Shown: one piece after another, positions 10,966 through 62,603 of the stretch | Layout of the letters: each line of letters starts with the position of its first letter | How positions within the stretch are numbered: the first letter of the stretch is position 1 | Notes under the pieces: generated by a model | The model's database searches: none | The model's input: the letters and a program-made list of their open reading frames with translations, nothing else | Told to the model about the DNA's origin: nothing | From: Bacteroidota bacterium | GTDB lineage: Bacteria; Bacteroidota; Bacteroidia; Bacteroidales; JAIFNL01 | Assembly: GCA_020047755.1 (NCBI GenBank) | Contig: JAIFNL010000080.1 | Span: 1,297-65,296, forward strand | DNA length: 64,000 nt | Direction of reading: 5' to 3' | Made by a program: the position numbers and the translations under genes

Positions 10966-10976
10966 AATAGAGCAAT

Positions 10977-21064: not shown

Positions 21065-21925
21065 ATGAGACAATTAAAGATTACTAAATCCATAACCAAC
21101 AGAGAAAGTGCGTCATTGGATAAGTATCTTCAAGAAATTGGGAAATACGAATTAATATCAGTAGAAGAAGAAGTAGAATTGGCACAGCGCATTAGAAAAG
21201 GAGACCGCATAGCCATCGAAAAATTAACTCGTGCCAACTTGCGATTTGTAGTGTCGGTTGCCAAACAGTATCAAAATCAAGGACTTAGTTTACCCGATTT
21301 AATTAACGAAGGCAACTTAGGGCTCATAAAAGCAGCAGAAAAATTTGACGAAACACGGGGTTTTAAATTCATTTCGTATGCTGTTTGGTGGATACGACAA
21401 TCCATTATGCAAGCAATCAATGAGCAGTCGCGTATTGTTCGCCTGCCCTTAAATCAAGTAAGTTCGTTGAGTAAATACAAGAAAGCGGTATCGAAATTTG
21501 AACAAGAAAATGAACGCAAACCTACGCCTGAAGAAATTGCTAAAATTTTAGAACTTCCTGAAAATAAAATACTTGATACAATGAAAGTGTCAGGAAGACA
21601 CTTATCGGTTGATGCTCCTTTTGTAGCAGGCGAAGACAATAGCTTACTCGATGTAATCGAAAACGATGACTCTCCCATTGCTGACGGAAAATTGATGAAC
21701 GAATCACTTTCGCGTGAGATAGACCGTGCGTTTGCTACCCTAACCGAAAGAGAGCGTACTATTTTGCGCCTTGCTTTTGGAATTGGCGCGCCCGAAATGT
21801 CGCTCGAAGAAATTGGCGACCAATTTGGATTAACTCGCGAAAGAGTTAGACAGATTAAAGAAAAAGCAATCAGACGCTTACGCCATACTTCGCGTAGTAA
21901 CTTATTAAAAACATATTTAGGTTAA
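21065..21925 (+). CDS. rpoD: Primary RNA polymerase sigma factor (short Bacteroidota sigma-A/RpoD type)
   Basis: Regions 1.2-4.2 are present: [79 protein letters not shown]. 286 aa. Confidence 0.92.
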
Positions 21926-22095: not shown

Positions 22096-23313
22096 ATGAA
22101 ATTCAAAGATTTTAATTTTAAGTCTTCAGTTCTTGATGGAATTGAAGCAATTGGTTTTCAAACTCCTACGCCTATTCAAGAAGAAACAATTCCAATTATT
22201 CAATCTGGAAAAGATTTGATAGGAATTGCTCAAACCGGAACCGGAAAAACTGCTGCTTTTGTGCTACCTATTATAGATCAAATAATTAGAAAAGACTATC
22301 AATATGTTAGTACTCTTATACTTGCACCAACTCGCGAACTAGTAATGCAAATAGACCGGCAGATAGAAGGCTTGGCTTATTTTGTTGATATTTCGTCGAT
22401 TGCAGTGTACGGTGGTGGCGATGGTGCTGCATGGGATTCGCAAAAAAATGCGTTCACGCAAGGAGCTGATATTATTGTGGCAACCCCAGGACGCTTGCTT
22501 TCACACTTGGCATTCAATTACTTAGACTTGTCGCAATTGAAGCACTTAGTGCTCGATGAAGCCGATAAAATGCTGGACATGGGTTTTTACGACGACATTA
22601 AAAAGATTTTGACTTACACTCCCAAAGAGCGTCAAAGTTTGCTTTTTTCGGCTACCATGCCCGAAAAAATAAACAAATTGGCAAGCGAAATATTAGTAAA
22701 TCCTGAGCGTATTAGTTTTTCGGGGTCAAAACCAGCCGAAGGCGTAATACAAGCGGCTTATGTGCTTTACGACGACCAAAAAAATGATTTGATTGCATAT
22801 TTGCTCAAAGACAAAGAAGATTTGAAAAATATACTCGTATTTACTTCAACCAAAAAAAATTGCAAATCGCTTTACAGCGACCTTACACGCAAGGGTTTTT
22901 TGGCAAAAGATATACATTCAGATTTAGAACAAAATGAACGAATAGAGGTACTAAGGGAATTTAAAAATCACTCGTTTCAAATACTGATAGCTACCGACAT
23001 TTTGTCGCGAGGCATTGATATTGAGAATATTGACTTGGTCATAAATTATGATATTCCGGCAGATGCCGAAGATTATGTGCACCGAATTGGGCGCACGGCA
23101 AGGGCAAAATCGGAAGGTTTGGCAATAAGCTTAATAAACGAAAAAGACCAGCAAAATTTTGGCAAAATAGAGAAATTAATAGAAACAGATATATTTAAAA
23201 TACCTTTACCTCCATTTTTAGGAAAAGCACCGGAATACAGCCCGAAAAAAAATAATGGAGGGAAATATAAAAAATTTTCTCATAAGAAAAAGAATTTTTC
23301 AAAAAATAAATAA
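22096..23313 (+). CDS. DEAD-box ATP-dependent RNA helicase
   Basis: Q-motif region, AQTGTGKTAAF, PTRELV, DEADKML, SAT, HRIGRTARA. Basic Lys-rich C-terminal tail. Confidence 0.92.
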   Translation: MKFKDFNFKSSVLDGIEAIGFQTPTPIQEETIPIIQSGKDLIGIAQTGTGKTAAFVLPIIDQIIRKDYQYVSTLILAPTRELVMQIDRQIEGLAYFVDISSIAVYGGGDGAAWDSQKNAFTQGADIIVATPGRLLSHLAFNYLDLSQLKHLVLDEADKMLDMGFYDDIKKILTYTPKERQSLLFSATMPEKINKLASEILVNPERISFSGSKPAEGVIQAAYVLYDDQKNDLIAYLLKDKEDLKNILVFTSTKKNCKSLYSDLTRKGFLAKDIHSDLEQNERIEVLREFKNHSFQILIATDILSRGIDIENIDLVINYDIPADAEDYVHRIGRTARAKSEGLAISLINEKDQQNFGKIEKLIETDIFKIPLPPFLGKAPEYSPKKNNGGKYKKFSHKKKNFSKNK

Positions 23314-34951: not shown

Positions 34952-37162
34952 ATGAAAAAACAAGTGCTTTATTTATTAATTTTTACTTTTTTTTCAGGGT
35001 TTTCTTTTTCACAAACCAGCGAAAAAGAAGAGCCTTATTCATTTAAAAATTTCAAAAAACAAGAAATACCGTTTCTCGAATTAGCAAAACCCGATTTAAC
35101 GCAAATAAAATTAGAGGATAATAAAAAATTGCAATTTGCAAAAAAGATAGAAATAACTATTCCGGTAAAAAACAAGAAAAATATTTATCTCAAAAATGAT
35201 GAATTTTCTATTTGGAGATTTGGTATTTGTGCAAAAGATGCAATTTCATTAAATCTTACATTTTCCGAATTTAAAATACCCAAAGGGTCAAAACTATTTG
35301 TTTATAGCGCCAATAAAATGTCTATTTTAGGCGACTTTTCGTCAAAAAACAATACCGGAAGTGGTATTTTTCCTGTTTTACCAATTTACTCCGATTCGAT
35401 AATTATAGAGTATTTTGAGTTGAATAACTCTGAATTTAGCTCCAAACTAGCTATAAAATCGGTAGGTTATGGCTTTATAGATTTAAGAGAAAATAGTTCA
35501 AAATCAGGCTCTTGCAACGTTGATATTCGATGCGAACTTGGTTTACCATGGTATTTAGAAAAAAGAGGCATAGCTAAAATGTTTATCGACAACGAGTTTT
35601 TTTGTACAGGTAGTTTAGTGAATAACACCCGAAATGATGAAACACCTTATTTTTTAACAGCAAACCATTGTGTATCAAGAGAAAGTTCGGCAAACAACAC
35701 TGTTTTTTATTTTAATTACGAAAATTTAGAATGTGGCAATGCCAGTGTAGGTCTTTTTCAAACTATTTCAGGAGCAAACTTAGTAGCAACACCTGAAAAA
35801 GACAACCAACTTGATTTTTCTTTGCTAAAACTTTCAGAAAAAGTACCTGACACTTTTTTGCCTTATTATGCAGGCTGGGATTTGAGTAATTCGGCTGTAA
35901 ATAAATCAGTTAGCATACATCACCCCGATGGCGATACAAAAAAAATATCGTTCGCAAATACAGCTTTACAAACAGCTTCCTATACGGGTTATATAGCTTC
36001 AACTCATTGGAAAATAAATAAATGGGATATTGGAACTACCGAAAGCGGTTCGTCAGGAGCTCCTCTATTCGACGAAAACCGGCGCATTGTGGGGATTTTA
36101 ACTGGCGGCACGGCTTCATGTACAGCCCTAAATGAATCCGATTACTTTGCCAAATTCGCAACCGCATGGAGTTATTATTCCGAACCCAATAGACAATTAA
36201 AAAAGTGGTTAAACCCAGATAATGAGAACATTACTACATTAAATGCGTTTGAACCTTTTCCCTTGACTTCAGAAAATAATGCAGGAATTGTAGAATTTAT
36301 TTTGCCACAGCAAGTTGTTTGCTTTGGCAAAAATATTACCGCAAAAGTTTTAATTAGAAATTTTAGTTTTACCGACTTAACTACGTTAAAATTAAAGTTA
36401 AAAATAAATGATAACCTTATTGATTCTATAGCTTGGACAGGAAATTTGAACTCGTATGAAACTGATTTTGTTGAGTTTAAAAAATTCCAAATGCCCGAAG
36501 GGAATCATAAATTGACGATATTAATTTCCAACCCCAATAATACAACTGATGCTGTGATGGCAAACGATACTTTATCTTGTTTTTTTTCGGTAAGCGAAGC
36601 AAATTATTTTAAATTGAAAATAAAAACAGACAATTATGGCTACGAAACAACTTGGAAAATAGTAAATAAAGCCAAAGAAACGATTTTTTCGGGCGGTCCG
36701 TATGCTAGCAATTCTACGTTTAATTACGATATTTGTTTAGAAGATTCGTGTGCTACACTTATAATTTACGATGCAGCAGCAGACGGAGTTTGTTGCAAAT
36801 ACGGAAATGGATTGTTTGAAATTACAAACAATTCAAATTCAATCATTTATGAAAGCCCACCCTTTACTGATTCTATTTCTTTTTCATTTTGCAGCAAAAT
36901 AATAGAACAAGATACTACCCAAAATATTTTCATCTACCCCAATCCTATGTTTGAAAATATAAACGTAACATACTCAAATTTAAGTAATTTGAAATATGAA
37001 CTTTACACATTAACGGGTACTCTTTTACAAGTAGGAATTGTTTCGGAAAACAATGCAAGCATTACATTAAATGATTTTAATTCAGGTGCTTACATTATTC
37101 GTTTTTTTGATAACGATTTGTATGAAAAATTTTTTAAAATAATAAAAATAAACCGAAAATAA
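34952..37162 (+). CDS. Secreted trypsin-fold (lysyl-endopeptidase-like) serine protease with T9SS type A C-terminal sorting domain
   Basis: Signal peptide. His motif LTANHC, Ser motif GTTESGSSGAPLF, GILTGG. C-terminus IFIYPNPMFENINV...GAYIIRFF...KIIKI. Confidence 0.8.
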   Translation: MKKQVLYLLIFTFFSGFSFSQTSEKEEPYSFKNFKKQEIPFLELAKPDLTQIKLEDNKKLQFAKKIEITIPVKNKKNIYLKNDEFSIWRFGICAKDAISLNLTFSEFKIPKGSKLFVYSANKMSILGDFSSKNNTGSGIFPVLPIYSDSIIIEYFELNNSEFSSKLAIKSVGYGFIDLRENSSKSGSCNVDIRCELGLPWYLEKRGIAKMFIDNEFFCTGSLVNNTRNDETPYFLTANHCVSRESSANNTVFYFNYENLECGNASVGLFQTISGANLVATPEKDNQLDFSLLKLSEKVPDTFLPYYAGWDLSNSAVNKSVSIHHPDGDTKKISFANTALQTASYTGYIASTHWKINKWDIGTTESGSSGAPLFDENRRIVGILTGGTASCTALNESDYFAKFATAWSYYSEPNRQLKKWLNPDNENITTLNAFEPFPLTSENNAGIVEFILPQQVVCFGKNITAKVLIRNFSFTDLTTLKLKLKINDNLIDSIAWTGNLNSYETDFVEFKKFQMPEGNHKLTILISNPNNTTDAVMANDTLSCFFSVSEANYFKLKIKTDNYGYETTWKIVNKAKETIFSGGPYASNSTFNYDICLEDSCATLIIYDAAADGVCCKYGNGLFEITNNSNSIIYESPPFTDSISFSFCSKIIEQDTTQNIFIYPNPMFENINVTYSNLSNLKYELYTLTGTLLQVGIVSENNASITLNDFNSGAYIIRFFDNDLYEKFFKIIKINRK

Positions 37163-37235: not shown

Positions 37236-38744
37236 TTACTCTGATTTAATTTCGATAAATTCAAAGTTCAAATTTACAAGTCTTTGGAAACGAAGCCCCA
37301 AAGAAAGCATATCTTCATCAATATCTTTGTATTTCCAAATAATTTTAACATTACTTTTGTTCGAAAATCGTTCCAATTCCAGAATAATTTTCATAATCTG
37401 CTTTGAAGATGCTGTATTAAAATATTCAAAATCAAAACTAAAAGTTGTTTCTGTATTAGGCTGTTTGCCATAATTTCTTATCCAACTAATGATTACATCA
37501 TAAAAATCAATAGCATTTTCGGGATACGAACGCTTTGCAATGGAAAAAAATCCTTTTTCCGCATCTAGCATTACTTCCGGAGTATCATCAGTTGGTTTTA
37601 TATTCAAAGTTTCAATCTTATTCACACTTTTTTTTATTTTAATCGTTAGCGTATAGAAATACTGCTCAGAATCTATTTTATAAAATTTAAAACCTAATTT
37701 ATTTTCGCTTTTTATACGCATGTCAATCAAACCAAGTCCAGTTTTTTTTGCGTTTCCAGAACCTTCATCGAGCAACACCCTGTCATAAGCATCGTCAAGT
37801 TCCTCATATTCAAGCAAATTTACGTAATTAATTTTATCTTCAAGTTTCTGATAATTTTCCGCTAAAATATAGTTTCCTGATGTAATAATAAAATTTTTTT
37901 CATTTTTACTTATAAAAAATATTCCGGGCTTCCCAAGTTGCTCTTTATTAGTCAGTTCACCATGTTTTACTATATTTTGAAGAAGTTCCATAATTACATT
38001 AAAAACCTTGATGGAAATTAACGATGCATTCATTTGGCTTTCAATCATAGAAAGCAAATTAAGCATATTTTCTTGGTCAAAAATACCTTTAAATGTTAAA
38101 ATAATATTTTCTTTGTTAAGAATTTTATGAAAATCAATGATTTTATCAAGTGATTGTTCTTTAATTTTCAACTCGTTCACTATTTTTTTATCATCTATTT
38201 GAGATGGAACCTTAGTGTTAAAATAAAAGTATGAAATTTTATCATTAATTTTACGAAAATTATAAAATAATTTATTTCCTGATTTTCGGCACATTTCAAT
38301 TAAACCCAATCCAGCACCACCTTTTTTTGATAATTCTCCATTTTCGAGAACTTCGAGGTAGTATTTTTTCAAAGAAGCAGCATCTAAGCTATTTACAATT
38401 TCCAATTTTTCTTGCAAATCGGGTACTTTATCGTTTTCTACCACATTGCCGGTTGTAATAAAAAAATGCCCATCACGCATCTGAATTAAAAAAATGCCAA
38501 CTGTTTCGTCATTATCTGGATTTAATTCTTGGTGTCGAGTTATATTTTGAAGTCCCTCAACCATAATAAAATACACACGTCGTTTAACAGACAAAAAGCG
38601 TTTTTCTTTTTCAAGATTCGTTTCAGCTAACGACAAAATATTCTCTGTTATGCTACGGTTAAAAACACCACGATAACAATACTCTAATGTTCCTTGTTGA
38701 ATATCCTGAAATAATTGATAGGCTAAATCATTGGTCTCGTTCAT
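37236..38744 (-). CDS. Fusion protein: two tandem SiaB-like (GHKL/anti-sigma-kinase-like) modules plus a C-terminal SiaC-like DUF1987 domain
   Basis: Internal duplication of aa ~20-178 versus ~213-370. Each half has an N-box-like motif (VEGLQNITRH / MELLQNIVKH) and a G-box-like motif (KGGAGLGLIEM / KKTGLGLIDM). The C-terminal ~120 aa carry YPENAIDFYDVIISWIRNY and FSFDFEYFNTASSKQIMKII, typical of DUF1987. Confidence 0.65.
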   Translation of the reverse strand: MNETNDLAYQLFQDIQQGTLEYCYRGVFNRSITENILSLAETNLEKEKRFLSVKRRVYFIMVEGLQNITRHQELNPDNDETVGIFLIQMRDGHFFITTGNVVENDKVPDLQEKLEIVNSLDAASLKKYYLEVLENGELSKKGGAGLGLIEMCRKSGNKLFYNFRKINDKISYFYFNTKVPSQIDDKKIVNELKIKEQSLDKIIDFHKILNKENIILTFKGIFDQENMLNLLSMIESQMNASLISIKVFNVIMELLQNIVKHGELTNKEQLGKPGIFFISKNEKNFIITSGNYILAENYQKLEDKINYVNLLEYEELDDAYDRVLLDEGSGNAKKTGLGLIDMRIKSENKLGFKFYKIDSEQYFYTLTIKIKKSVNKIETLNIKPTDDTPEVMLDAEKGFFSIAKRSYPENAIDFYDVIISWIRNYGKQPNTETTFSFDFEYFNTASSKQIMKIILELERFSNKSNVKIIWKYKDIDEDMLSLGLRFQRLVNLNFEFIEIKSE

Positions 38745-39012: not shown

Positions 39013-39383
39013 CGAGCAGTAAGTTGCTCTATCGCTGTTACATTTATCTGTAAGAGAGGAAAGTCCGGGCAACGCAGAGCGGCATACTTCTTAACGAGAA
39101 GATTCTTGCGAAAGAATAGTAGCGCAACAGAAAAATACCGCCTTTTTTTCGGAAAAGGTAAGGGTGAAAAGGTGGGGTAAGAGCCTACCGGTGCGGCAAG
39201 TAATTGTTGCAGCCGTGCGCCTTATGTGTTGAAAGTTCATGTATATCAGTATTTAAGGTTTGCTCGACCTATATTGAGGGGTAGAACGATTGAGTACGAA
39301 AGTAATTTCGTGCCTAGATAAATGATAGGGGATTTGGCAGAAATGCCAAATTACAGAATCCGGCTTATAGACTTACTGCTTTT
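39013..39383 (+). ncRNA. rnpB: RNase P RNA, bacterial type A
   Basis: P1 pairing agcagtaagt (39015-39024) with acttactgct (39371-39380). Universally conserved P4 strands GAGGAAAGTCCGGGC and ACAGAATCCGGCTTAT. GGTAAGGGTGAAAAGGTGGGGTAAGAGCCTACC (J11/12-P12 region). Ends are accurate to about 5 nt. Confidence 0.95.
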
Positions 39384-39417: not shown

Positions 39418-42279
39418 ATGAAGTTTGTTTCTATAATAATTGCTCTGCTTTTTATTTTTAGTAATATAAAAATATCTTATTCACAGGTAGTTATTAATGA
39501 ATTTTTAGCTTCAAACGAAAAAAATATCATCAACTCTTCTACACAAACCTATGATGACTGGATAGAGTTACACAATATATCTTCTACCGATTTCGATTTA
39601 AGCTCATGCTATCTTACTGATAATCTTACAAATCCCACAAAATGGAAATTTCCGGCAAACACAATTATAAAAGCAAATGGCTTTTTAGTTGTTTGGGCAA
39701 ATAGTGTTAATAATCAATTAAATACAAATTTTAACCTTTCTGCTTCTGGCGAAGAAATTGGGCTTTTTTCGGCTACGCTTTCATTGATAGATAGTGTACG
39801 TTTTGGGCAACAATTATCCGATATTTCTTTTGGCAGGTGGAGCGAAGAAAAAGGGCAAAAAGTTTTTTTTAAAATACCTACCTTTGAAAAAGCGAACTCT
39901 GCATCACAATATTTTTGGGGAATCGCACAAAAACCTTCTTTTGTTTCAAAATCAGGATTTTATAATTCTTTGTCTGTTGAAATTATCCCCAACACTTCGG
40001 GCGATAGCATATATTATACCACCGACAATTCTACGCCTACTAGAACCTCCAATTTGTACAAAGCACCATTTCTTATTTCTAAAAATACAAACGTTAGAGC
40101 AGTTAGTGTTAGACAAAAATACCTGAATAGTTTCACCATTTCTGCTAGTTATTTTATTAACGAGCCTCAAAGCAAATTGCCAATTTGGTCGATAACAACC
40201 GATTCTGTTAATTTATATGGAAATACCGGTATTTATTCTCACCCTTGGACAGATGGATTAGAATGTGAGGTGGACAATATTTTCATTAAAAATAATTTAG
40301 AGGATTTTAATATAAAATCTGGACTTAGAATACAAGGAAGTAGTTCGGTAGGAATGCCTAAAAAGTCATTTCGCGAATTTTACAAAAGTAGTTTGGGCAA
40401 TGAATATTTGAATTATAATTTATTTTCATTAAATAATCTGGCATATTTTAAAAATACAGTTTTGCGTGCAGGCTACGATGACGACTTGACCGATGGGCTT
40501 GGCACACTTTTAAGAGACCCACTATCTTCTGATTTATGGCGTAAAACGGGAGGTTTAACATCTCTTTCAGAATGGTCTGTTCTTTATTTGAATTCAAAAT
40601 ACTGGGGTATTTATAATGTAAGAGAAAGTATTAATGAATATTTTATAGAGCATCATACGGGATCAACTAATTTTGAATTAGTTCGTTATCAAAAAGAAGG
40701 TGCCGAAATTAAATATGGAAATGGAAGCGAATGGCAAAAACTCGTAAGCTTTTTTAATACAACCGATTTTTCAAAAGAAAATAGCTTTTATGCCGCTTCT
40801 GAATTTATTGATATGGCTAATTTTATAAATCTTCTGGCATTTGTGCATTGCACTCAATACCGAAGTTGGACTTGGGGAAGTTTTGCCTACAAAGAATACT
40901 CGCCAAATGGAAGATGGCGTTGGACTATTTGGGATACAGATAGATCATATAGCACTTTAAGCTGGAATGGCTTTACCGAATATCAATATTTAACTGCCGA
41001 GAAATGGTCTAATTTTATGCCACAAAAATTGATTCAAAATGAAATTTTTAAGCATAAGTTAGTAAATAGAATTGCCGATTTACTTAATTCAGAATTTTTA
41101 CCAGATAAAGCAATTGCTTCGCTCGATTCTGTTCAAAGTATTATTGAACCCGAAATCAGAAGAGAAATAACTCGTTGGACTACAATTTCTTATACAACTT
41201 GGCTCACACGAGTTGAAAATTTACGGACTTTTTTTAAACAGCGACCTACTTATTTGCGCAATCAAATTTTGAGCTATTTTTCGCTTGCTGCAACTAAGCA
41301 AATTACATTAAATATTGAAGGCAAAGGCTACATTCAAATTAATACAATTAAACCCACTCAATATCCTTGGCAAGGTATTTATTTTCAAGGTGTAGCAATT
41401 GAATTAACAGCTGTTCCTGCACAAGGTTTTAAATTTCTGAAATGGTCGAATGATGCAAGCGGTATTACAATTAAAATAATGCCAGAAAACTTTTCGGAAC
41501 TGACGGCTTTTTTTGTCGAAGATACTGCTGCTAATAATAACAAACCCTTAGTTATTAATGAAATAAACTACAATTCTGCGCCTATTTTTGATACCGAAGA
41601 TTGGATAGAGATTTATAACCCAAATCTAAGTTCTGTGAATTTAGCGAATTGGACTTTGAATGATAACAATGAATTTAACCGGTTTATTTTTCCTGAAAAG
41701 ACTACAATTCTAACAGAAAGTTTTTTGGTAGTTTGCAAAGATACAAATCAATTTAAAATTCGCTTTCCCGAAATTTCAAATTACATAGGTAATATTAATT
41801 TTGGTTTTGGAACATCAGACGAAGTAAAGATTTATAATTCAGATAATTTGCTAGTCGATTTTGTAAGTTATACTTCTTCAGCACCTTGGAGTCCTATTGC
41901 TAATGGAAGCGGAGCTAGTTTAGAGCTTGTTTCGCCAGATAAGAACAACGAATTAGCCGAAAATTGGATAGCTATTTTAAACTATTATGGCACGCCAGGT
42001 AAAAAAAATAGGGTGCTATTAAATAATATTGATGTATCGATAAATGACGAAATGTGTGTGTTTCCAAACCCTGCAACCGATTTTGTTCATGTAAATATAC
42101 CAGCAAACCAATCGGGAAAACTCAGACTTTTCGATTTGAGTGGAAAATTGCAACTACAAACGGATTTGAAGCAGCAAAATAATCAGGTTGATATACAATC
42201 ATTGACTAATGGATTTTATATGCTTCAGATTGTTGTAAAAGAAGGTGTTTTCAATTATAAAATATTAAAAATAAACTAG
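39418..42279 (+). CDS. Secreted CotH-kinase-family protein flanked by two lamin-tail (LTD) domains, with T9SS type A C-terminal sorting domain
   Basis: Signal peptide. LTD-like VINEFLASN...DDWIELHN and LVINEINYNS...EDWIEIYNP. CotH-like core (LRIQGSSS..PKKSFR, LRDPLS, YLNSKYWGIYNVRE, WTIWDTDRSY). C-terminus VFPNPATDFVHVNI...GFYMLQIV. Confidence 0.8.
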   Translation: MKFVSIIIALLFIFSNIKISYSQVVINEFLASNEKNIINSSTQTYDDWIELHNISSTDFDLSSCYLTDNLTNPTKWKFPANTIIKANGFLVVWANSVNNQLNTNFNLSASGEEIGLFSATLSLIDSVRFGQQLSDISFGRWSEEKGQKVFFKIPTFEKANSASQYFWGIAQKPSFVSKSGFYNSLSVEIIPNTSGDSIYYTTDNSTPTRTSNLYKAPFLISKNTNVRAVSVRQKYLNSFTISASYFINEPQSKLPIWSITTDSVNLYGNTGIYSHPWTDGLECEVDNIFIKNNLEDFNIKSGLRIQGSSSVGMPKKSFREFYKSSLGNEYLNYNLFSLNNLAYFKNTVLRAGYDDDLTDGLGTLLRDPLSSDLWRKTGGLTSLSEWSVLYLNSKYWGIYNVRESINEYFIEHHTGSTNFELVRYQKEGAEIKYGNGSEWQKLVSFFNTTDFSKENSFYAASEFIDMANFINLLAFVHCTQYRSWTWGSFAYKEYSPNGRWRWTIWDTDRSYSTLSWNGFTEYQYLTAEKWSNFMPQKLIQNEIFKHKLVNRIADLLNSEFLPDKAIASLDSVQSIIEPEIRREITRWTTISYTTWLTRVENLRTFFKQRPTYLRNQILSYFSLAATKQITLNIEGKGYIQINTIKPTQYPWQGIYFQGVAIELTAVPAQGFKFLKWSNDASGITIKIMPENFSELTAFFVEDTAANNNKPLVINEINYNSAPIFDTEDWIEIYNPNLSSVNLANWTLNDNNEFNRFIFPEKTTILTESFLVVCKDTNQFKIRFPEISNYIGNINFGFGTSDEVKIYNSDNLLVDFVSYTSSAPWSPIANGSGASLELVSPDKNNELAENWIAILNYYGTPGKKNRVLLNNIDVSINDEMCVFPNPATDFVHVNIPANQSGKLRLFDLSGKLQLQTDLKQQNNQVDIQSLTNGFYMLQIVVKEGVFNYKILKIN

Positions 42280-42354
42280 TATTTTTTTTTAGTATTTTTA
42301 TACTTGGCATTGAAAATTAATATGTATTTTTTTTAACAAATTTAATTTTATTTG

Positions 42355-42933
42355 ATGGATATTCAAGCAATAACAGACTCGGTATATTATTCGTATGTAA
42401 TATTGCCTATTTTGATATTTTTCGCTCGTATTTTTGACCAATCTATTGGTATTCTGCGTATTATAGTTGCTACCAAAGGACTTAAACATGTTGCGTTTAT
42501 TGCTGGTTTTTTTGAATCGTTGGTTTGGCTTTTGGCTATAAGTCAGATTTTAAAAGAAGTTGATAATATTGTAGGCTACATAGCTTTTGCTGCCGGATTT
42601 GCTACCGGAAATTTTGTGGGAATTTATCTCGAACAGCGCATTTCTATTGGCTTTGTGGTTGTTAGAGTTGTATTTAGGAAAAATTCTGACGAAACGATAC
42701 GCTTACTCCGCGAAACAAATTTTACGATAACCATAGTAGATGCCCTAGGCTCGGAAGGTGCTGTAAAAATGATTTTTAGTAGCATAAAACGCAGAGAGTT
42801 AAATACTTTCATTAGTATTTTAAACAAAAATAATCCTACTGCTTATTATACTGTGGAAGATGCAAAATTAATCAAAGACGGAGTAATCACAAAGCGCAAA
42901 CCTTTTCTGCGAAAAACATCTGTACGGAAATAA
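42355..42933 (+). CDS. UPF0316/DUF2179-family membrane protein
   Basis: ILIFFARIFDQSIGILRIIVATKG plus two further TM helices and a C-terminal soluble DUF2179-like domain. The ATG at 42355 is preferred over the TTG at 42352. Confidence 0.7.
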   Translation: MDIQAITDSVYYSYVILPILIFFARIFDQSIGILRIIVATKGLKHVAFIAGFFESLVWLLAISQILKEVDNIVGYIAFAAGFATGNFVGIYLEQRISIGFVVVRVVFRKNSDETIRLLRETNFTITIVDALGSEGAVKMIFSSIKRRELNTFISILNKNNPTAYYTVEDAKLIKDGVITKRKPFLRKTSVRK

Positions 42934-51707: not shown

Positions 51708-54700
51708 CTATTTCAGTATCAATAATTTTTCTATTTTTTCAACCTCATCATCGTTTTCATTTTTTACTTTGAGCTTGTAAAAATAAACGCCTCTTCCAAT
51801 TTTGTCGCCAAAATCGTCTAAGCCGTCCCAGAAAATCCCTTCCGATAGAAAGCTCTGTACGTTAATGGTTTGCTCAATATTCTTAACCAATTTGCCCGAA
51901 ACGGTAAAAATTTGAATGGATACATCGAGGTTTGAGTTCGCCTGATTGTGAGTAAAATAAAACCAAGTGGTATTGGTAAATGGATTTGGATAATTGAATA
52001 GTTTATCGATGGTTAGTTCGCTGTCTTCAATTACCAAAAACTCTATGTCGGCAGTGGTGGAATTGTTGAGAACGTCCCAAACTTTGAGGTTCAAACTATG
52101 ATTTCCAGCAGCAACATTGGTAAAAGGATATTCTATTCGTCCTTTTTTGTAAGTGTCTTTTTCTGATTGATAAAAATCGTTGAGAATAAAACTGTTGCGG
52201 GTATCGTTGTCCAACACAGCCGTTATGTCGTGCCCTATTCCATTTCCCACGGTGTTTATTCCGGTATTTGAATTGATGTAAACAAGCAGTTTGGGGCTTT
52301 GGTTGGTAATGCCTCCAGATACAAAGGTAGAATCGTTCATATACAATTCTAAATCAATATTCTCGTTACTCGAAACCGGATTTTGAGAAAAACCACCTAT
52401 AACTATTTGGTTGCTGTAACCGGTTGCAGGAAAATCGTCGAAAAGAGCATAATAGCTAAACTTTCCAAAACCAAACTTGTACGAAATATCTTTGGGAACA
52501 ATAAAAGCGATGGAAAATTCTCCGTTTTTAACGGTAGCAATTCCGTTGTAAAGAACATTTTTTTGTACCTGAAAATCGACAATGGGCGCACCGTCTTGCC
52601 CAAGAGTTTGTTGGGTCATAAATTTATCGAAAACCGTTAAGTTTAGTGTTCCATTCAAACTTGTCAATTTTAGGTTTTGAGAATTGACAATCTCGCCGCT
52701 AATTCTGACTTCTTCAGCGGCTTTGAGCGTGTCTTGTCCTACTGTTTTTTCATTTATCGAAGTTGTTAATACTTTGTACTTTGGAATTGCAATTTGCAAA
52801 GCGGGGTCGCCCAAAAGTGTAAAATTGAGTTTGTTGATGCCCGAACCCGAAGTATTTTTGGTACGCTGCATTACTTCACCTAGCCTATATTGCTCATTGT
52901 TGTCATCGTTTTCAAAAATAAAGTCGTAAAATTTGTTGTTGAGCGTATAATTTGGCGAGGCATACACCAAACGAGTAGTTGAAAATAAGGCAACTCCTCC
53001 TCCATCGGGGTTCAATAAAATCTCCTCACCTGCGGTAACAATTTCCCAATCGTCGAAGCGTGAAAATTCGCAAGTTGCGGTCATAAAAACAGCCAGTTTG
53101 TCTTTATTTTTCCACGACCGAATAATACCAATATCAATTACTTTTTCGTGCGCAAGGGTGGATTCGTTGCCGTGCCCATTGTAGTTAAAAATAAGCGTTC
53201 CTTTGTTCAAAGCATCTTCTACCCCTTGGTTGATGCCCACCGAAGTAGAACCTCCGGCGGTACTTTCTTGATTGTAAGCACCTATATATAGTTTTGTGAT
53301 GTTGTATTCGGGGTGTAAAAGTCGTACTTTGTCCGACAAGCCTTCGCCGTGGTTTAAATGAATATTGCCGTTGTTATCATCGCCATCGTCGGCTACAAAA
53401 GTGATATTGTTTTGCCAGCTTCCAAAAGAAGCCGCGCTGTTGTAATGCTTTGTTTTGCTTACTAATAGCTCGGCTTGTTGGGTAGTTTCTACCGGAAAAC
53501 GCCCAATTCCAATATCCAAAAGCCCCGTATAATCGCCTTCGTTTTCGTCTAACAACCCAAAGAAGTCGTCGGAAACAAAAGAGCTAGTTGGCGAAACAGA
53601 ATTTTCTGATTGATAAGTAAGTATGTAATTAGAATTTGTACTTCCAGCTATTCGCCCCACATTGTCATACGAGCCATTACCAAAAAGCAACAAGTAGCGT
53701 GGGTATTTGCCTTGCGTTTGAGCTCTGTTGTAAAACATTCGTACAAAATCTCTTAGAGCAGAAACATCAACTGCCCCCGACGAAAATTCATTGTAAATTT
53801 GCTCGGGTTTTACTAGCGTAACGTGTAGATTTGTAGTTTGTTGATAATAATTTTTCAAATCATTGGCTTGCGCATAAAATTTAGGATTGGCTATAATAAT
53901 GTAATCTGTTTGTTCAAGAGCATGCAAATTTTGGTTTTCTACTTTGCCAAGCCCAGTGCCTTGAGTAATAGGCGTTAAAAAAGAACTTCCATTAAAAGCA
54001 ACAAACTCTAAGGTTTTATTGTTTTTTTGTTTAAAATACGATTTTCCACCATTGAAATTAGTTGCTATTGCTTGCACATTGTGCATATCGGTAACGTTCC
54101 AAACAGACATCGTTTCGGTTGTATTTCCAACTATCAGCTCGCAAATTTTTTCTTGTGCAGTAACATTCAAATAGCGAAAAGGCATTTGGCTACCCGAAAA
54201 AATCAATTCTCGCCTGGCATTGAGCACAAAATTATCGAGCCATGCTTCGCTCGATGCGCTTGACTTTGTATATTTTAAATTTAAGTTTAAATTGCTATTG
54301 CCTGACGAAGCAAAAGTATGTATTTTGGTTAAAGCCTGAGCATAAGGTGCCGTTTCGGAAACCGAAGTAGCTGGCACCGACATGAGCGAGGTGTAATTGT
54401 CGATGGAAAGAGTAAACGACGAAACAGCAAAAGAGCGAGCCGCAACAACTGATTTTAATTTAATTTCGCTAGCATTTACAATGTTCGGAAAATTGATATT
54501 GAAATCGTATTCTAGTTGAGCATCAAACTTTTCGCCAACCCAACTACTCCCCGACTCTATTAGGTTTTCGAGCTCGCGTTCGTGAAAATAGTAATCGGTA
54601 AATTGCTGTATGGTTTCGCTAGCAGGATCTGTAATTTGTGGCATTGTAGCTATTTGATTATCAAAACCTGAATTGTAGTCCGATGTGATGAAATAATACG

Positions 54701-55508
54701 CATAATCGCTAAATTTGTGCAAAGTAGGCAAAAACATTTGAATTGTAGAGCTGTAATCCCAGCGAGTTGGTCCTTTGGCATAAAACAAAATATGGTCGCT
54801 GTTTTTCTTTATTTTAAGTTCTTTGAGGTCGTCGATGCGCTCAGTTGCGTTTTGAGTCGAAAGTAAACCTTCTCCGTTGCCAAAAACCCGCACATTTTGT
54901 GGGTTTGCTATTCCTAAAGCAGTCAGCTGTTCAAATGTTAGTTTGTAAATGCCCGTTTGGTTAATTGCTATTTTGTACCAATTACCTGAGCTAAGTACCG
55001 AGTTTTGTGCATATTTCTTTGCCAACTTTTTAGCTGTTCGTTTTAGCGTGCTTTTTACTAACTGATAATCAAAACTCACAAGCCGTTCTAATTCATTGGT
55101 TTGGGCATTGCGCCTAATGGGCACAAACGAAAATTGCAAATACAGTTTTTGTTGCGAGAAGTATTCTTCAGCCACTACGTTGATGTTTTGCTTAATTAGG
55201 TTTAGATTCGCTACACCTTGAAGTTTACTTTTATTGATAGGTTCAAAAACCATATTGGTAAGTTGCACGTCGTATTTATAATTGTCTGCTTGTAGATGGT
55301 TTATATCTATCAAATTAGAATAAAAAGGCAAGAAACTCTGGTCATCGAGATTTGCATTTTCAAAATACAGAAATTCTTGAACCTCCTGGTTTTCGTTTGT
55401 TTTAGAAAGGTTCTCTTTCCAGCTAAGTTTATCAGAGTAGGTTTCTTGCGAGAATAAGGCACTCGAAAGTAGTAAAACAAGTATGGTTGCAGCAATTAAC
55501 TTATACAT
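51708..55508 (-). CDS. porU: Type IX secretion system C-terminal signal peptidase/sortase PorU (C25 gingipain-like)
   Basis: About 1266 aa. C25-like catalytic region NYNGHGNESTLAHEKV (His) and FMTATCEFSRFDD (Cys). LLFGNGSYDN. C-terminal CTD-like FNYPNPFTNTTWFYF...GVYFYKLKV. The ATG at 55508 is preferred over the TTG at 55517. Confidence 0.8.
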   Translation of the reverse strand: MYKLIAATILVLLLSSALFSQETYSDKLSWKENLSKTNENQEVQEFLYFENANLDDQSFLPFYSNLIDINHLQADNYKYDVQLTNMVFEPINKSKLQGVANLNLIKQNINVVAEEYFSQQKLYLQFSFVPIRRNAQTNELERLVSFDYQLVKSTLKRTAKKLAKKYAQNSVLSSGNWYKIAINQTGIYKLTFEQLTALGIANPQNVRVFGNGEGLLSTQNATERIDDLKELKIKKNSDHILFYAKGPTRWDYSSTIQMFLPTLHKFSDYAYYFITSDYNSGFDNQIATMPQITDPASETIQQFTDYYFHERELENLIESGSSWVGEKFDAQLEYDFNINFPNIVNASEIKLKSVVAARSFAVSSFTLSIDNYTSLMSVPATSVSETAPYAQALTKIHTFASSGNSNLNLNLKYTKSSASSEAWLDNFVLNARRELIFSGSQMPFRYLNVTAQEKICELIVGNTTETMSVWNVTDMHNVQAIATNFNGGKSYFKQKNNKTLEFVAFNGSSFLTPITQGTGLGKVENQNLHALEQTDYIIIANPKFYAQANDLKNYYQQTTNLHVTLVKPEQIYNEFSSGAVDVSALRDFVRMFYNRAQTQGKYPRYLLLFGNGSYDNVGRIAGSTNSNYILTYQSENSVSPTSSFVSDDFFGLLDENEGDYTGLLDIGIGRFPVETTQQAELLVSKTKHYNSAASFGSWQNNITFVADDGDDNNGNIHLNHGEGLSDKVRLLHPEYNITKLYIGAYNQESTAGGSTSVGINQGVEDALNKGTLIFNYNGHGNESTLAHEKVIDIGIIRSWKNKDKLAVFMTATCEFSRFDDWEIVTAGEEILLNPDGGGVALFSTTRLVYASPNYTLNNKFYDFIFENDDNNEQYRLGEVMQRTKNTSGSGINKLNFTLLGDPALQIAIPKYKVLTTSINEKTVGQDTLKAAEEVRISGEIVNSQNLKLTSLNGTLNLTVFDKFMTQQTLGQDGAPIVDFQVQKNVLYNGIATVKNGEFSIAFIVPKDISYKFGFGKFSYYALFDDFPATGYSNQIVIGGFSQNPVSSNENIDLELYMNDSTFVSGGITNQSPKLLVYINSNTGINTVGNGIGHDITAVLDNDTRNSFILNDFYQSEKDTYKKGRIEYPFTNVAAGNHSLNLKVWDVLNNSTTADIEFLVIEDSELTIDKLFNYPNPFTNTTWFYFTHNQANSNLDVSIQIFTVSGKLVKNIEQTINVQSFLSEGIFWDGLDDFGDKIGRGVYFYKLKVKNENDDEVEKIEKLLILK

Positions 55509-55587
55509 AAAAATCAAATTATTATTTTATTACAAATGGGCATTGAAATAATAAACAAATGAAACTAAGGGACATTTAAAATTTTCA

Positions 55588-57468: not shown

Positions 57469-58866
57469 CTACTTATCCCACCAATTTTTAGAATTGATTG
57501 TCAAATCCTTAGGAGTATTCTCATTGTAAGTAACCTCCTCTTGTGGATAAGGGTATCTACGTGGAATTTGCCCAATAGCACTAGCCGGAGCAGACAAAGC
57601 AGGAATACCTGTACGTCTCCAGTCGTTGTAAGCTTGAACTGTTGCAATGCTCGAAATATACTTTTGGGTCATTACATCAGTCAATGAAACCGAGGCTTTG
57701 TTGTTGATGTTAGCATCTAACCATGTTGTATTAGCAGCTCCGGTTTGTTGTAATACCGAAGCAGCAGTAGCTGCTTTGAAAGCTGCAAGAGCAGGAGCTG
57801 CATTTCCCAACATCAAATTGGCTTCAGCTTCAATAAATTTCAACTCAGCATACGACATCAATATCACGGAAGTACTTTTACCGGCAATAGCAGTTCCCAT
57901 TAGAGAAACACCACTAGTTTCAGTAGCTTGAGGAGCTCCTACAGCAACTCCTCCAATAAGAGTAGCAGTAAAATTAATACGAGGGTCAGATGCAGTATTT
58001 AGCATATTAACGTAAGTCTCAGACATATTAGCATCGGCACGTTCTAAATTGAATTGATACAATGGATTAGCTGCACGGTCGCCTACGCCAAAAGGAATAA
58101 TGAAGTTATCGTCGTTAGAAGCCAATGCATTTGATATATAACCTAAAGCTTCGGTAGCCGCAGCATTACCATTTACTTTAGAAAGATTCATTGCATAGCG
58201 AGCTTTTAAAGCATAAGCCACCTTAGTCCATTTTGCAGCATTTCCATTAAAAACCATATCGCCTTTTACAACATCGGTAGGGTCAGCCGCTACAGCTAAC
58301 AATGTAATAGCATCAGACAATAGAGTTTGGATAGTAGTATAAATAGACTGTTGTGTGTCAAAAGTAGCATTATACTCTCCATTTTCACCGCCAAAAGCAT
58401 TAGAATAAGGAATATCGCCCCATAAGTCGGTAGTAATACCTAAGGTTACGGCAATGTGAATATTGGCAATAGCCTCATAATGCCCATTAGGTTTAAGGTC
58501 TGAGAATTGACCTTCAGATTTAGCCATTTGTTTCAACACCAAAGCATCTTTTAAAATACCAGCATAAATAGCATTCCAAAGGTTATTGCAATCTGATGGT
58601 AAAAACTGATGTTTGCTAATAGTGTATTGCTGACGGGCAAAGCCGTTAAAATATTGCATCCAGTTGTTGGTAGTCAATACTGCATCATTCCCACCTAAGC
58701 TATAGCCCATTCGAGCCTGAATAGCAGGCAAGATTAGAGCTTTAGGAACAATAGTGGGAGAATCTGGATCAACATTCAAATCGGTATTAATCCATTTTTC
58801 GCACGAGCCTAATATCAGAACAGACATCAAAATCAGTGCTAATGATTTTATTTTATATATTTTCAT
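57469..58866 (-). CDS. SusD/RagB-family nutrient-binding outer-membrane lipoprotein (SusD-like_2 type)
   Basis: Lipobox VLILGSCEKW. Helical TPR-like body. Ends ...INSKNWWDK, typical of this subfamily. Directly follows susC. The ATG at 58866 is preferred over the GTG at 58890. Confidence 0.8.
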   Translation of the reverse strand: MKIYKIKSLALILMSVLILGSCEKWINTDLNVDPDSPTIVPKALILPAIQARMGYSLGGNDAVLTTNNWMQYFNGFARQQYTISKHQFLPSDCNNLWNAIYAGILKDALVLKQMAKSEGQFSDLKPNGHYEAIANIHIAVTLGITTDLWGDIPYSNAFGGENGEYNATFDTQQSIYTTIQTLLSDAITLLAVAADPTDVVKGDMVFNGNAAKWTKVAYALKARYAMNLSKVNGNAAATEALGYISNALASNDDNFIIPFGVGDRAANPLYQFNLERADANMSETYVNMLNTASDPRINFTATLIGGVAVGAPQATETSGVSLMGTAIAGKSTSVILMSYAELKFIEAEANLMLGNAAPALAAFKAATAASVLQQTGAANTTWLDANINNKASVSLTDVMTQKYISSIATVQAYNDWRRTGIPALSAPASAIGQIPRRYPYPQEEVTYNENTPKDLTINSKNWWDK

Positions 58867-58900
58867 AAATCTTTTTTTTAAAATTTTCACAAACTACAAA

Positions 58901-61900
58901 TTAGAAATTAAGTTTAAGACCAAAAGTGTAAGATTTTGTTCCCGGCATGTTGAAATAATCCATACCCTGCGCGTTGTCAGCACCTAATAAACTTGTTTCA
59001 GGGTCAATACCTGTGTAATTAGTTTTCAACCAAAGATTTCTTCCGGTAGCATACACTTCAAGACCTTTAATAAAGTTCAAACCAATAACCTGTGGCTTCA
59101 ATCTGTACGACAATGAAACTTCGCGTAAACGCACCCAACCAGCATCTTCAACACCAGGAGAAGTAGCACCACCACCAAAGTTAGAACCTTGTCCTGTGAA
59201 CCAAGCTTGTCCGTTTACTACAGGGATATTATTGCTAACTCCACTAGAAACTGGTTTTCCGTTGGCATCAACGTGCCCTAAAACACCTGAATAAACTACA
59301 ATATTTCCTGAAGGAGTCTTTGTGAAGTCGATAGAGCCATCAGCCATATAATAAACTTCACGGTTTTCAGTTTCGATAGAAGTACCGAAGTTGTTCATTG
59401 CTAAACGAGTTCCATTGTACATTTTACCACCATGTTTCACATCAATCAAGAAAGAGAAAGTGATACCTTTGTAGCTAAATGTATTGGTCATATTTGCAGT
59501 CCAGTCTGGATTTACAGAACCAAGCGCAACCATTTCACGGTCATCTGTCATAGGGAATCCATCAGGATAAGAATCGTTGGGGTCATCGTTAATAAGCACA
59601 TTACCCTCAGCATCGCGATACCAATCGTATCCAAAAATAGAACGATATTCCATTCCGGCAACTGCACGAATTTGTGGGTCAGTAAAACCACCTAAAAATA
59701 CGTTGTCGATGCCTGGAGCAAGTTTAGTTACCGTATTTTTAATCTTAGTAAAATTCACATGAATATCCCAAGAAAAATCATCGGTTTTAATAGGTGAACC
59801 ATAAGCCATAACCTCAAAACCTTCGGAAGTCATTTCTCCAGCATTCATATAGGCTTCGGTATAACCCGAAGAGGCAGCAACAGGAACAGCCATTAACAAG
59901 TCAGTATTGGTATTCTGGAAAACAGCAAGGTCTAAACCTAATCTATTTTTTAAGAATTTCAATTCCACACCTGTTTCAAGTGTTTTCATCGTTTCGTGTT
60001 TCAAATCTGGATTACCTTGCACATCGCCCCAGCTATAGCCGTTGAATGTACCGGTAGTAGCTACCATTGGGAAGGTTAAACCGCCAGTCCAACCATCACC
60101 AGGAGCTGCTGAAGCAAAAGAGCTAGACAAAGAATAAGCTGGAGCAATATTTGCTGTTTTAGCATACGAAGCGCGAAGTTTACCAAACGAAAGGATTGCA
60201 TTATCTTTCAACATACCCAACTCTGTAAATATAAAAGCCAAGTTAGTAGAAGGGTAAAATTCTGATAAATTATCGGCAGGCATGGTAGTTGACCAATCGT
60301 TACGACCAGTAACTCCCAAATACAACATGTTTTTATAATCTATTTGAGCATCGAAAAACAAAGCGGCTGTACGATAAGTAGAAGTACCTGTGCTTGTTTT
60401 TTGGTCGGTTGTATTCGATAATTGATAAAATTCTACAATTGACAATCCGTTAGCAGAGCCATACAAATTTTTACCATAACTTTGATACATATTTTGTCCT
60501 AAAGTCAAACGTGCACTCAAATCATCAGAAAAACTCTTAGTCATGTTAATCAAAAAGTCAGAGTTAATAATTTGACCGGTATATTGATATTCGCCAACAA
60601 GACCTGTAGGAGTAGTACGAGAACCAATAGCCAACACATTTTTATACCTGCGGTTGTACCAGTCAGTACCTACTTTGTATGAAAAATTTAACCAATCAGT
60701 AGCTTCGTAATTTACATATACATTACCCATAAAACGATTGGTTACATCTTGCCATGAGTTCTCATTAGCAGTCCAATATGGGTTGTCATATCCGCCACCG
60801 TTACGGTAGTTGCGTTGCGAAAGGTCAGAAAACTGCCAACCTATTTTTTCGCCAAAAACGTCAGTATCGTAGCCACGACCTTGATTATCAAAGGTAGGAG
60901 GAGTACGCAACAAACCTAACATAACACCTGAGGTGTTTGAACCTTGTTGTATAAAATTTCCATTTGAATTAACATAAGTCATACTCGAACCGGTAGTAAT
61001 TTTGCTAGTCAGTTTAGTTTCTGAATTTAACTTGAACGAACTACGTTCAAATGTATTGTTGGGAACAATACCTTCTTGAGTCATATTACCCACAGAGAAA
61101 TAATATGTTGTGGTTTCACTACCTCCTGAAACACTCAAGTTATTATTTAGAGTCAAACCTGTTTGGAAAAAATCGAATTGGTCATATACATTAACCGGTC
61201 CGCCACTGGTAATAGCAGTACCTTTAGGAACAATTTTACCGTAAGGATCCCACTTGTAGTAGGTAGCTTTTGTAGGATCGGTAGTAGAAGCATCATACTC
61301 TAAATCTGAAATTTTTGCACCCCAAGAACTAGCATTTCCACCAACCCAAACACCACCTGTTCCTTGCGAATACATTTGTTGCATACCCGGAGTTTTAGAA
61401 ATTTGTTCAAAACTTGCCGAAGAAGAGAAAAGAACATCAAATTTTTTACTTTTTCCTTTGTGAGTAGTAATAACAATAGCACCGTTAGCAGCCTGAATAC
61501 CATAAAGAGCTGTAGCAGCACCACCTTTCAAAACGTTCATAGTAGCAATATCCTCTGGGTTAATGTCGATAGAACGACCCGAAGTTGCAACACCATCAAC
61601 AGCACCACCACCACCACCAGTGATAATAGGAATACCATCGACAATAAATAACGGTTGATTATTTCCTGTAATAGACGCAGCACCACGTATAGTAATGTAA
61701 GCAGAAGCACCAGCAGTACCTCCAGAGCTATTTACTTGTACACCAGCGGCACGACCCGAAATAGAGTTAATTAAGTCCGCATTGTTGGCACGCCCAAGTT
61801 CATCGGAATTAATATCCTGAACCGAATACCCCAATGCTTTCTTATCTCTCTTTATTCCTAAAGCAGTAATAACAACCTCGTCGGTAATTACATCGGTTGA

Positions 61901-62188: not shown

Positions 62189-62232
62189 AAAATTTGTAAA
62201 TTAGGTTAAAAATTTATTTAAATAATCAACTG

Positions 62233-62263
62233 CAAAAATAATAAATCTATTAAACTATGCAAA
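62233..62263 (-). promoter_or_regulatory. Candidate full-consensus Bacteroidota promoter for susC: TTTG-N19-TAttTTTG (minus strand)
   Basis: Plus-strand caaaaata (62233-62240) and caaa (62260-62263) are separated by 19 nt. The -7 box lies about 45 nt upstream of the susC ATG. Confidence 0.5.
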
Positions 62264-62554
62264 TAAAATTTAATTTTTGTTAAAAAACAAGTCTTCTTTT
62301 ATCTAATTTGAAAGATTATCAAATAATTAGATTTATGTTATTTAATTATTAAAAGAAACAATGCTCTGCTATAATTTCACTTTAAAGCATTTTTTAGGTT
62401 GTTTTTAATTAAAAAGTATTCGTTAAGTGGCAAGGTAATTAACTGACGGCATTTATGCAGTAGTTCAAGAATAAGCCACTTTTATTAGGTTTTAGGGCTT
62501 ATTCTAAGTAATTCTGTTCTTTTGAGAGCAAGAAAGAATTACTAAAAAACAAAA

Positions 62555-62579: not shown

Positions 62580-62603
62580 TTGGATTATTTTAAAAGCGAA
62601 ATA

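Follow-up and report, generated by a model that had tools for sequence, protein, structure and literature searches.

The 64,000-nucleotide stretch of contig JAIFNL010000080.1 from a Bacteroidota bacterium (the window throughout this text) contains on its minus strand a gene in which two SiaB-like kinase modules and one SiaC-like (DUF1987) domain are joined in a single polypeptide. The gene is a complete open reading frame (ORF), and no reading frame was found open on the plus strand of the same interval (37236–38744), where stop codons occur throughout. The SiaC domain is tethered to the second kinase module by ~6–8 residues, with no added linker between them. The order SiaB-like, SiaB-like, SiaC-like had been proposed in an earlier reading of this DNA (hereafter the original prediction), and profile searches, sequence similarity to proteins of solved structure and the predicted fold all bore it out. 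The positions of the modules, their motifs and the other genes discussed below are collected in Table 1.

Table 1. Features of the fused gene, of the window around it and of related loci. Positions are those of the window unless preceded by a locus number (L). aa, amino acids; pLDDT, predicted local distance difference test; T9SS, type IX secretion system.
Feature	Position	Strand	Remarks
Fused SiaB-SiaB-SiaC gene	37236..38744	minus	Complete ORF with ATG start, 502 aa plus stop codon (ORF list and translation)
Kinase module 1 (SiaB-like, aa 10–180)	38205..38717	minus	More canonical copy; Pfam DUF6272, E = 1.5e-37
Module 1 N-box core E63-G-L-Q-N67	38544..38558	minus	Aligns with SiaB YIEMTQNI
Inter-module linker (aa 181–199)	38148..38204	minus	Columns variable and gapped in the alignment; pLDDT <50 for aa 184–193
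Kinase module 2 (SiaB-like, aa 200–372)	37629..38147	minus	Diverged copy; Pfam DUF6272, E = 5e-29
Module 2 N-box core E253-L-L-Q-N257	37974..37988	minus	Aligns with SiaB E-x-x-Q-N motif
SiaC/DUF1987 domain (aa 379–499)	37248..37610	minus	Pfam SiaC, E = 6e-34 on the segment alone
Thr444 codon, predicted phospho-acceptor	37413..37415	minus	Equivalent of SiaC Thr68 (HMMER alignment; codon checked)
Trypsin-like protease with T9SS sorting domain	34952-37162	plus	Convergent with the fused gene
rnpB (RNase P RNA, class A)	39016-39383	plus	252 bits; divergent from the fused gene
CotH-kinase/lamin-tail-domain protein	39418-42279	plus	953 aa, T9SS sorting signal; after rnpB
DUF5698/DUF2179 membrane-protein gene	42352-42933	plus	3.6 kb from the fused gene; likewise in the 90% identical relative (L088)
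Primary-type sigma-70, regions 1.2–4	21065-21925	plus	286 aa; ~15 kb from the fused gene
DEAD-box helicase	22096-23313	plus	Follows the sigma-70 gene
Reg_prop/Y_Y_Y protein	1528-4455	plus	975 aa; weak below-threshold LuxR-type GerE match at C-terminus
T9SS-related gene	10977-13328
T9SS-related gene	13573-14925
T9SS-related gene	51708-55517
Two SusC/SusD-like pairs	57469-63992
Pentapeptide-repeat/Ion_trans_2 gene	L002:11567-13579
Pentapeptide-repeat/Ion_trans_2 gene	L012:11530-13545
Pentapeptide-repeat/Ion_trans_2 gene	L016:6735-8729
Pentapeptide-repeat/Ion_trans_2 gene	L021:6185-8065
Pentapeptide-repeat/Ion_trans_2 gene	L025:11540-13528
Pentapeptide-repeat/Ion_trans_2 gene	L057:5832-7802
First SiaC gene after tandem kinase gene	L074:11098-11505		Split locus
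Second SiaC gene after tandem kinase gene	L074:11508-11882		Split locus

When the three parts of the protein were searched separately against Pfam, each matched its expected family (Table 1), and the entire 502-aa protein matched DUF6272 twice (E = 4.3e-66) and SiaC once (E = 2.4e-32). The score for PF19788 (DUF6272) was 221.1 bits over two stretches against a cut-off of 26.6, with 128.7 and 101.1 bits for the single modules, and that for PF09345 (SiaC/DUF1987) was 111.6 bits against a cut-off of 24.5. The NCBIfam model SiaB_fam_kinase (NF038262) likewise matched two stretches, with 248.9 bits (cut-off 85). The NCBIfam equivalog models scored under their cut-offs, with 111.7 bits (cut-off 225) for the SiaB model of PA0171 orthologues (NF038264) and 68.1 bits (cut-off 150) for the SiaC model (NF038265). 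Thus, the protein belongs to both families and is not an orthologue of the Pseudomonas proteins. Pfam returned no domain beyond the two DUF6272 and the SiaC, and neither a PP2C nor a sensor domain was found on the same chain. The internal duplication of the product, which had been noticed in the original prediction, was confirmed by BLASTP of aa 1–190 against aa 191–375, the two halves being 35% identical over 153 residues (E = 3e-21).

The motifs listed in the original prediction were all found at the places given, namely EGLQN...H (aa 63–71) and KGGAGLGL (141–148) in module 1, ELLQN...H (253–261) and KKTGLGL (333–339) in module 2, and the DUF1987 signature, which was located as SYPENAIDFY...W and FSFDFEYFNTASSK. 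Conservation was counted in the alignment columns of 120 full-length fused homologues, among which the pattern E-x-x-Q-N-x-x-x-H was invariant in both modules. Module 1 was invariant at E63, Q66, N67, H71, T97, T98, N100, G142, G143, A144, G145, and G147, and G99, K141, L146, and L148 were conserved in ≥98%; these positions include TTGN (97–100) and the KGGAGLGL stretch. In module 2, E253, Q256, N257, H261, N291, L337, and G338 were invariant, and the five residues ahead of G-L-G (336–338) were variable, with NAKKT replacing KGGAG in the window protein. The same asymmetry was seen in the fused and unfused relatives: GGxGLGL occurred in module 1 of 88/88 tandem proteins, and module 2 was mostly without a Gly-rich stretch. 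The suggestion that one kinase copy is degenerate stands in part, as the KGGAG part of the lid is lost from module 2, but its E, Q, N, H, and GLG are kept. Judged from sequence alone, module 2 is a diverged copy that retains the residues associated with Mg/ATP binding in GHKL proteins, and it is not to be called dead.

The residue roles known for SiaB (PMC7647112 and PMC7278518) were used for comparison with the Pseudomonas aeruginosa proteins. Module 1 matched the SiaB chain 6kko_A over aa 18–174 with 58.8 bits (E = 3.9e-15), and the match of module 2 alone was weaker (32 bits, E = 8.8e-7). The Glu of the motif falls on index 62 of the deposited SiaB chain and is the sole Glu within one residue of Glu61, the predicted catalytic residue of SiaB (PMC7647112). 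The C-terminal domain matched SiaC (6KKO chain C and 6K4F) with E of about 1e-7. HMMER aligned FNTASS of the window protein with LNTSS of SiaC, which places T444 on T68, the residue phosphorylated in P. aeruginosa SiaC (PMC7647112, PMC7278518). Position 444 was Thr in 116 and Ser in 4 of the 120 fused homologues. Profile matches were found for all the three parts, and the Mg/ATP-associated residues and the putative phospho-acceptor have been retained together.

The structure of the protein was predicted with AlphaFold2 on 120 homologues. The model had a mean pLDDT of 84.8, with low confidence only at the N-terminus and in the inter-module linker (aa 184–193), and the SiaC domain was modelled at pLDDT of about 91–97. 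A Foldseek search of the PDB returned SiaC chains first (6kko_D, 6k4f, and 7e6g; target template modelling (TM) score 0.89–0.91, root mean square deviation (rmsd) 1.4–1.8), with 6kko_D at a target TM score of 0.89 and rmsd of 1.4. The SiaB chains 6kko_A/B came second (target TM score 0.84–0.85, E = 2.6e-8), followed by SpoIIAB anti-sigma kinases with E of 1e-3 and ~10% sequence similarity. The match to the structure of Mycobacterium tuberculosis Rv1364c (3KE6) was weak (E = 0.13–0.24).

The relationship of the fused gene to its unfused relatives was investigated by protein searches and by a survey of loci. A protein search at E ≤ 1e-5 gave 2493 relatives, the best 120 of which were 489–626 aa long (nearly all ~500 aa) and had both Pfam domains in every case; at 90% identity, at least 120 fused clusters were counted, with sequences from NCBI, JGI, ENA, and Logan. 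Where the source of these best 120 was named, it was Bacteroidales, Bacteroidota, or “Chlorobi” metagenome-assembled genomes (MAGs), and the database labels of the fused relatives were “DUF1987 domain-containing protein” or “SiaB family protein kinase.” When the 50%-identity representatives were searched exhaustively, 331 proteins were obtained at E ≤ 1e-30. The best 150 of these representatives included ~8 fused proteins of ~500 aa, the rest being mostly tandem SiaB-SiaB proteins of ~360–390 aa. Furthermore, 84 non-redundant loci from species-representative genomes and metagenomes were classified by local hidden Markov model searches into 14 fused loci, 55 split loci in which a tandem SiaB-SiaB gene is accompanied by a separate SiaC gene, and 15 tandem-only loci. 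In the 55 split loci, the SiaC gene (~124 aa) overlaps the tandem kinase gene (~375 aa) or begins ≤ ~90 nucleotides past its stop. The unfused Bacteroidota units were homologues of 40–50% identity and shared both the module asymmetry and the SiaC Thr.

The frame of SiaC relative to the kinase gene was evenly spread over the split loci (19/15/21), and an ATG start was present at nearly all the displayed junctions; stop-codon readthrough or recoding in these loci was rejected on both counts. The split loci are real and tightly coupled gene pairs. The fused junction was ungapped in the alignment, with no additional linker, no internal Met, and an uninterrupted ORF, and the fusion looks as if two partner genes had simply lost the stop codon that separated them. 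A 502-aa product and the synteny of the window were also seen in the 90% and 69% identical relatives, which indicates that the fusion is stable in the lineage and not an artefact. In a rough neighbour-joining tree with weak deep nodes, most of the fused genes formed one clade and the window gene and L005 were placed elsewhere, and either one or two fusion events are possible. In one split locus (L074), the tandem kinase gene is followed by a pair of SiaC genes in succession (Table 1), which would bring kinase modules and substrates back to a 2:2 ratio. In a separate subgroup (L065, L077, L079, L082, L083, and L085), a tandem SiaB-SiaB gene without an adjacent SiaC gene directly follows thrA (aspartokinase/homoserine dehydrogenase) and thrC (threonine synthase) in the same orientation, at ~10001–11140 where the locus has its full length, and no PP2C was found in these loci.

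The neighbourhoods of the relatives were then compared. Clustering of 1244 neighbouring ORFs showed that the commonest conserved neighbour is a protein with a SpoIIE (PP2C) domain. An iterated local profile detected SpoIIE within 3 kb in 24/55 split loci, and in ~20 of these 24 the SpoIIE gene is convergent and starts ~370–560 nucleotides past the kinase gene, directly after SiaC. Pfam confirmed the SpoIIE domain in 10/10 neighbours tested, with TPR, PAS/DUF4154, or Reg_prop/Y_Y_Y as sensor regions. Because split units are often adjoined by such a sensor-SpoIIE/PP2C gene, a phosphatase acting in trans is the expected partner. Among the fused loci, a SpoIIE gene was found within 10 kb in 5/14 and directly adjacent in none. 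One fused clade (L001/L002/L012/L014/L015) has several SpoIIE genes within 2–8 kb, and the genomes of the SpoIIE-near fused loci have single-module SiaB+SiaC+PAS-SpoIIE operons close by (e.g., L001 and L002). No GG[DE]EF motif was found among the 1244 ORFs of 88 loci. At the level of the family, an unusual and self-contained switch that lacks a phosphatase is not upheld, as fusion is the minority form there (14 versus 55 loci) and 24 of the 55 split units have SpoIIE within 3 kb; the survey of architectures and neighbours that had been proposed with it revealed the co-occurring PP2C beside split relatives.

The main fused clade has conserved neighbours of its own. In 8/14 fused loci, the next gene downstream, in the same orientation and after a gap of 0–118 nucleotides, encodes a ~665-aa protein that combines pentapeptide repeats with an Ion_trans_2 (K+ channel-like) pore, and polyphosphate kinase (Ppk1) is encoded nearby in 7/14. 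The channel and Ppk1 are possible outputs or co-regulated functions of this clade; neither gene is present in the window. Two further arrangements were noted around split or tandem genes. An HtrA-like protease (Trypsin_2 + PDZ) is divergent from the tandem gene in seven loci (L039, L066, L068, L074, L076, L086, and L041), lying ~180–1020 nucleotides upstream on the opposite strand, and it belongs to a different sequence cluster from the convergent T9SS protease of the window and its relatives. A DUF5698/DUF2179 membrane-protein gene directly follows SiaC, in the same orientation, in L041, L068, L076, and L086 (~11480–12100), four split loci that belong to another clade.

In the window itself, the fused gene is flanked by the T9SS protease gene and rnpB, as had been claimed (Table 1). 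No PP2C/SpoIIE or GGDEF domain was found by Pfam in window ORFs of ≥100 aa, in agreement with the original prediction, and an iterated SpoIIE profile also found none. A scan for promoters and terminators around the fused gene did not exceed the number of matches obtained with shuffled sequence, and it used a consensus that does not fit Bacteroidota. The Reg_prop/Y_Y_Y architecture of the protein near the start of the window is also seen as a sensor fused to SpoIIE beside Sia-like units in L001 and L039. The T9SS-related genes of the window, which include the protease and the CotH-kinase/lamin-tail gene next to rnpB, comprise an SprB-repeat/CHU_C protein, a beta-helix protein with a Por tail, and a 1269-aa Peptidase_C25 protein. 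Taken with these genes and the two SusC/SusD-like pairs, the G+C content of 33.5% identifies the source as a low-GC Bacteroidota genome.

These findings together suggested, with a probability that we put at about 0.6, that the gene encodes a single-chain kinase–substrate unit of a SiaABC-like partner switch, in which the PP2C phosphatase is encoded elsewhere and the target is not a cyclase. In P. aeruginosa, SiaB phosphorylates Thr68 of SiaC, SiaA dephosphorylates it as the PP2C phosphatase of the system, and SiaC in its unphosphorylated form activates the cyclase SiaD (PMC7278518, PMC7647112, PMC8457831), and SiaB forms dimers (PMC7278518, PMC7647112). In the split form of the Bacteroidota system, a tandem SiaB-type GHKL Ser/Thr kinase is encoded beside its SiaC-type substrate, often with a sensor-linked SpoIIE/PP2C gene adjoining. 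In the window form, the absence of the stop codon between kinase and substrate fixes a covalent 1:1 ratio, and the two SiaB modules may be the intramolecular counterpart of the SiaB dimer. Module 1, with its intact Gly-rich lid and its closer match to SiaB, would be the likelier catalyst, and module 2 could be a second active site or mainly a docking or dimer-mimic module. We infer that Thr444 in the tethered SiaC domain is the site on which the kinase acts, be it in cis or in trans, and that a PP2C encoded elsewhere in the genome removes this phosphate in response to a signal, upon which the unphosphorylated SiaC domain would engage a downstream target other than a SiaD-type diguanylate cyclase.

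Several observations weigh against this interpretation. There is no PP2C in the 64 kb or beside the 90% and 69% identical relatives, and the phosphatase for the window copy is assumed. The N-box of module 2 is complete, and the assignment of module 1 as the catalyst rests on lid conservation and closeness to SiaB only. The predicted TM score (pTM) of the AlphaFold2 model was only 0.68. The literature searched did not mention DUF6272, and no biochemical data were found for tandem or fused members.

An output through the kinase moiety rather than through the SiaC domain was considered, and we regard it as unlikely. The tandem kinase would in this case act by sequestration in the manner of an anti-sigma factor, as in Rv1364c or RsbW/RsbV, and would hold a target such as a sigma factor until the unphosphorylated fused SiaC domain displaces it. 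The SpoIIAB anti-sigma kinases are structurally nearest after SiaB, and Rv1364c provides a precedent in which a GHKL kinase and its antagonist reside on one chain, with autophosphorylation and SigF binding (PMC7693655). The claim that the window has no sigma gene was wrong, as a primary-type sigma-70 gene is present (Table 1), and sigma genes 81–100% identical to it are found within 3 kb of the tandem gene in eight other loci, in two of which (L060 and L070) the sigma gene is directly upstream on the same strand. However, an identity of 81–100% across genomes indicates that this is the primary (housekeeping) sigma factor, its proximity is confined to two related clades and may be plain synteny, and no extracytoplasmic function (ECF) or alternative sigma gene was found among the conserved neighbours. 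In addition, two-hybrid and pull-down assays of the characterised Sia proteins showed binding of SiaB to SiaC and none to SiaD, and it is SiaC that carries the output (PMC7278518).

It also looks quite improbable that the fused protein is an autonomous switch or scaffold, in which module 2 as a pseudokinase docks the SiaC domain and module 1 phosphorylates T444 in cis, with resetting by turnover or reversal in place of a phosphatase. The lack of a PP2C near the window gene and its close relatives would fit this model, as would a further fused homologue (P0015) without PP2C among its called neighbours, the loss of the Gly-rich lid from module 2 in most family members together with its greater distance from SiaB (32 versus 58.8 bits), and the ~8-residue linker that ties SiaC straight to module 2. 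However, the same module asymmetry is present in the unfused form, which often lies beside a PP2C, and it is therefore not a consequence of fusion or autonomy. The invariant E, Q, N, and H of module 2 would be unexpected in a dead site, and the fused clade with SpoIIE genes within 2–8 kb argues against a switch that dispenses with the phosphatase. A bolder reading is that the tandem-SiaB/SiaC unit is a c-di-GMP (cyclic di-GMP)-free, Bacteroidota-specific switch with the fused form as its autonomous single-chain version, in which module 2 is a pseudokinase-like dock for unphosphorylated SiaC, module 1 phosphorylates T444 in cis, and the released domain or kinase surface controls an unexpected target, for which the pentapeptide-repeat K+ channel or Ppk1 (main fused clade) and the primary sigma factor (two clades) would be candidates; this, too, we hold to be doubtful.

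That a stop codon was lost through an error of sequencing or assembly, or that the gene is a pseudogene in decay, might be suspected from the stop codon at the junction in most relatives and from two loci that look truncated (L009 and L038), but it is exceedingly improbable and effectively refuted by the at least 120 independent 90%-identity clusters with both domains from four sequence sources and the 502-aa ORF of the 90% and 69% identical relatives, besides the ungapped junction and the highly conserved SiaC domain with its predicted acceptor Thr (or Ser).

The interpretation as a kinase–substrate unit with a phosphatase in trans has a bearing beyond this locus. Pseudomonas is so far the only genus in which SiaB/SiaC signalling has been characterised, and there it controls a diguanylate cyclase. 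Bacteroidota, with some Chlorobi-labelled MAGs, possess a large tandem SiaB family (the 331 clusters at 50% identity), in which the kinases are paired with SiaC and often with a sensor-PP2C, and no cyclase was found in the neighbourhoods examined, so the output of the Sia-type pathway in Bacteroidota appears different from that in Pseudomonas. The tandem and fused family seems to be catalogued in databases but undescribed, because DUF6272 is absent from the literature searched, in which a single paper names DUF1987; no publication describing the unfused Bacteroidota units was found there either. As a Rosetta-stone event with functional precedent, the fusion itself is nothing out of the ordinary, and the gene is routinely annotated, which makes the finding useful and not startling; it is the broader family and its output that merit study. 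The fused protein provides a natural 1:1 kinase–substrate construct for the biochemistry and structure of how a SiaB dimer handles its substrate and whether the two modules divide the labour.

Compared with known systems, the window protein is nearest to SiaABCD of P. aeruginosa (SiaB PA0171, SiaC PA0170; PDB 6KKO, 6K4F, and 7E6G) in its parts. The kinase and substrate belong to the same families with matching folds, the catalytic-type Glu/Asn motif and the equivalent of the Thr68 acceptor are present, the relatives of the gene lie beside SpoIIE/PP2C as SiaB/SiaC lie with SiaA, and the tandem modules can mimic the SiaB dimer. It differs in that the kinase is duplicated in tandem and fused to its substrate, that the window has no SiaA-like PP2C or SiaD-like GGDEF gene and the 88 neighbourhoods no GG[DE]EF, and that the PP2C partners of the relatives bear TPR, PAS, or Reg_prop-Y_Y_Y sensors. 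The features that go beyond the known Sia system are the tandem kinase fused to its substrate, the orphan locus, and the presumed non-cyclase output.

The closest architectural precedent is Rv1364c, a single chain that combines sensor, PP2C, GHKL kinase, and antagonist domains, the last of which undergoes both autophosphorylation and autodephosphorylation (PMC7693655). Like the window protein, it joins a kinase covalently to its phospho-substrate domain, and it shows that single-chain partner-switch modules exist and function. However, the domains of Rv1364c are an RsbW-type kinase and a STAS-type (RsbV) antagonist in place of DUF6272 and DUF1987, its phosphatase and sensor are on the same chain, and it has one kinase module versus two in the window protein.

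The Bacillus pairs SpoIIAB/SpoIIAA and RsbW/RsbV share the general scheme of a GHKL Ser/Thr kinase, a small alpha/beta partner phosphorylated on one Ser/Thr, and reversal by a PP2C, and SpoIIAB acts as a dimer. Those kinases sequester sigma factors, whereas no alternative sigma gene is linked to the gene described here. The direct homologues of the fused protein are the unfused Bacteroidota units (e.g., L052, L027, and L036, and the single-module operons of L001 and L002), in which kinase and substrate are separate proteins and a PP2C is often adjacent.

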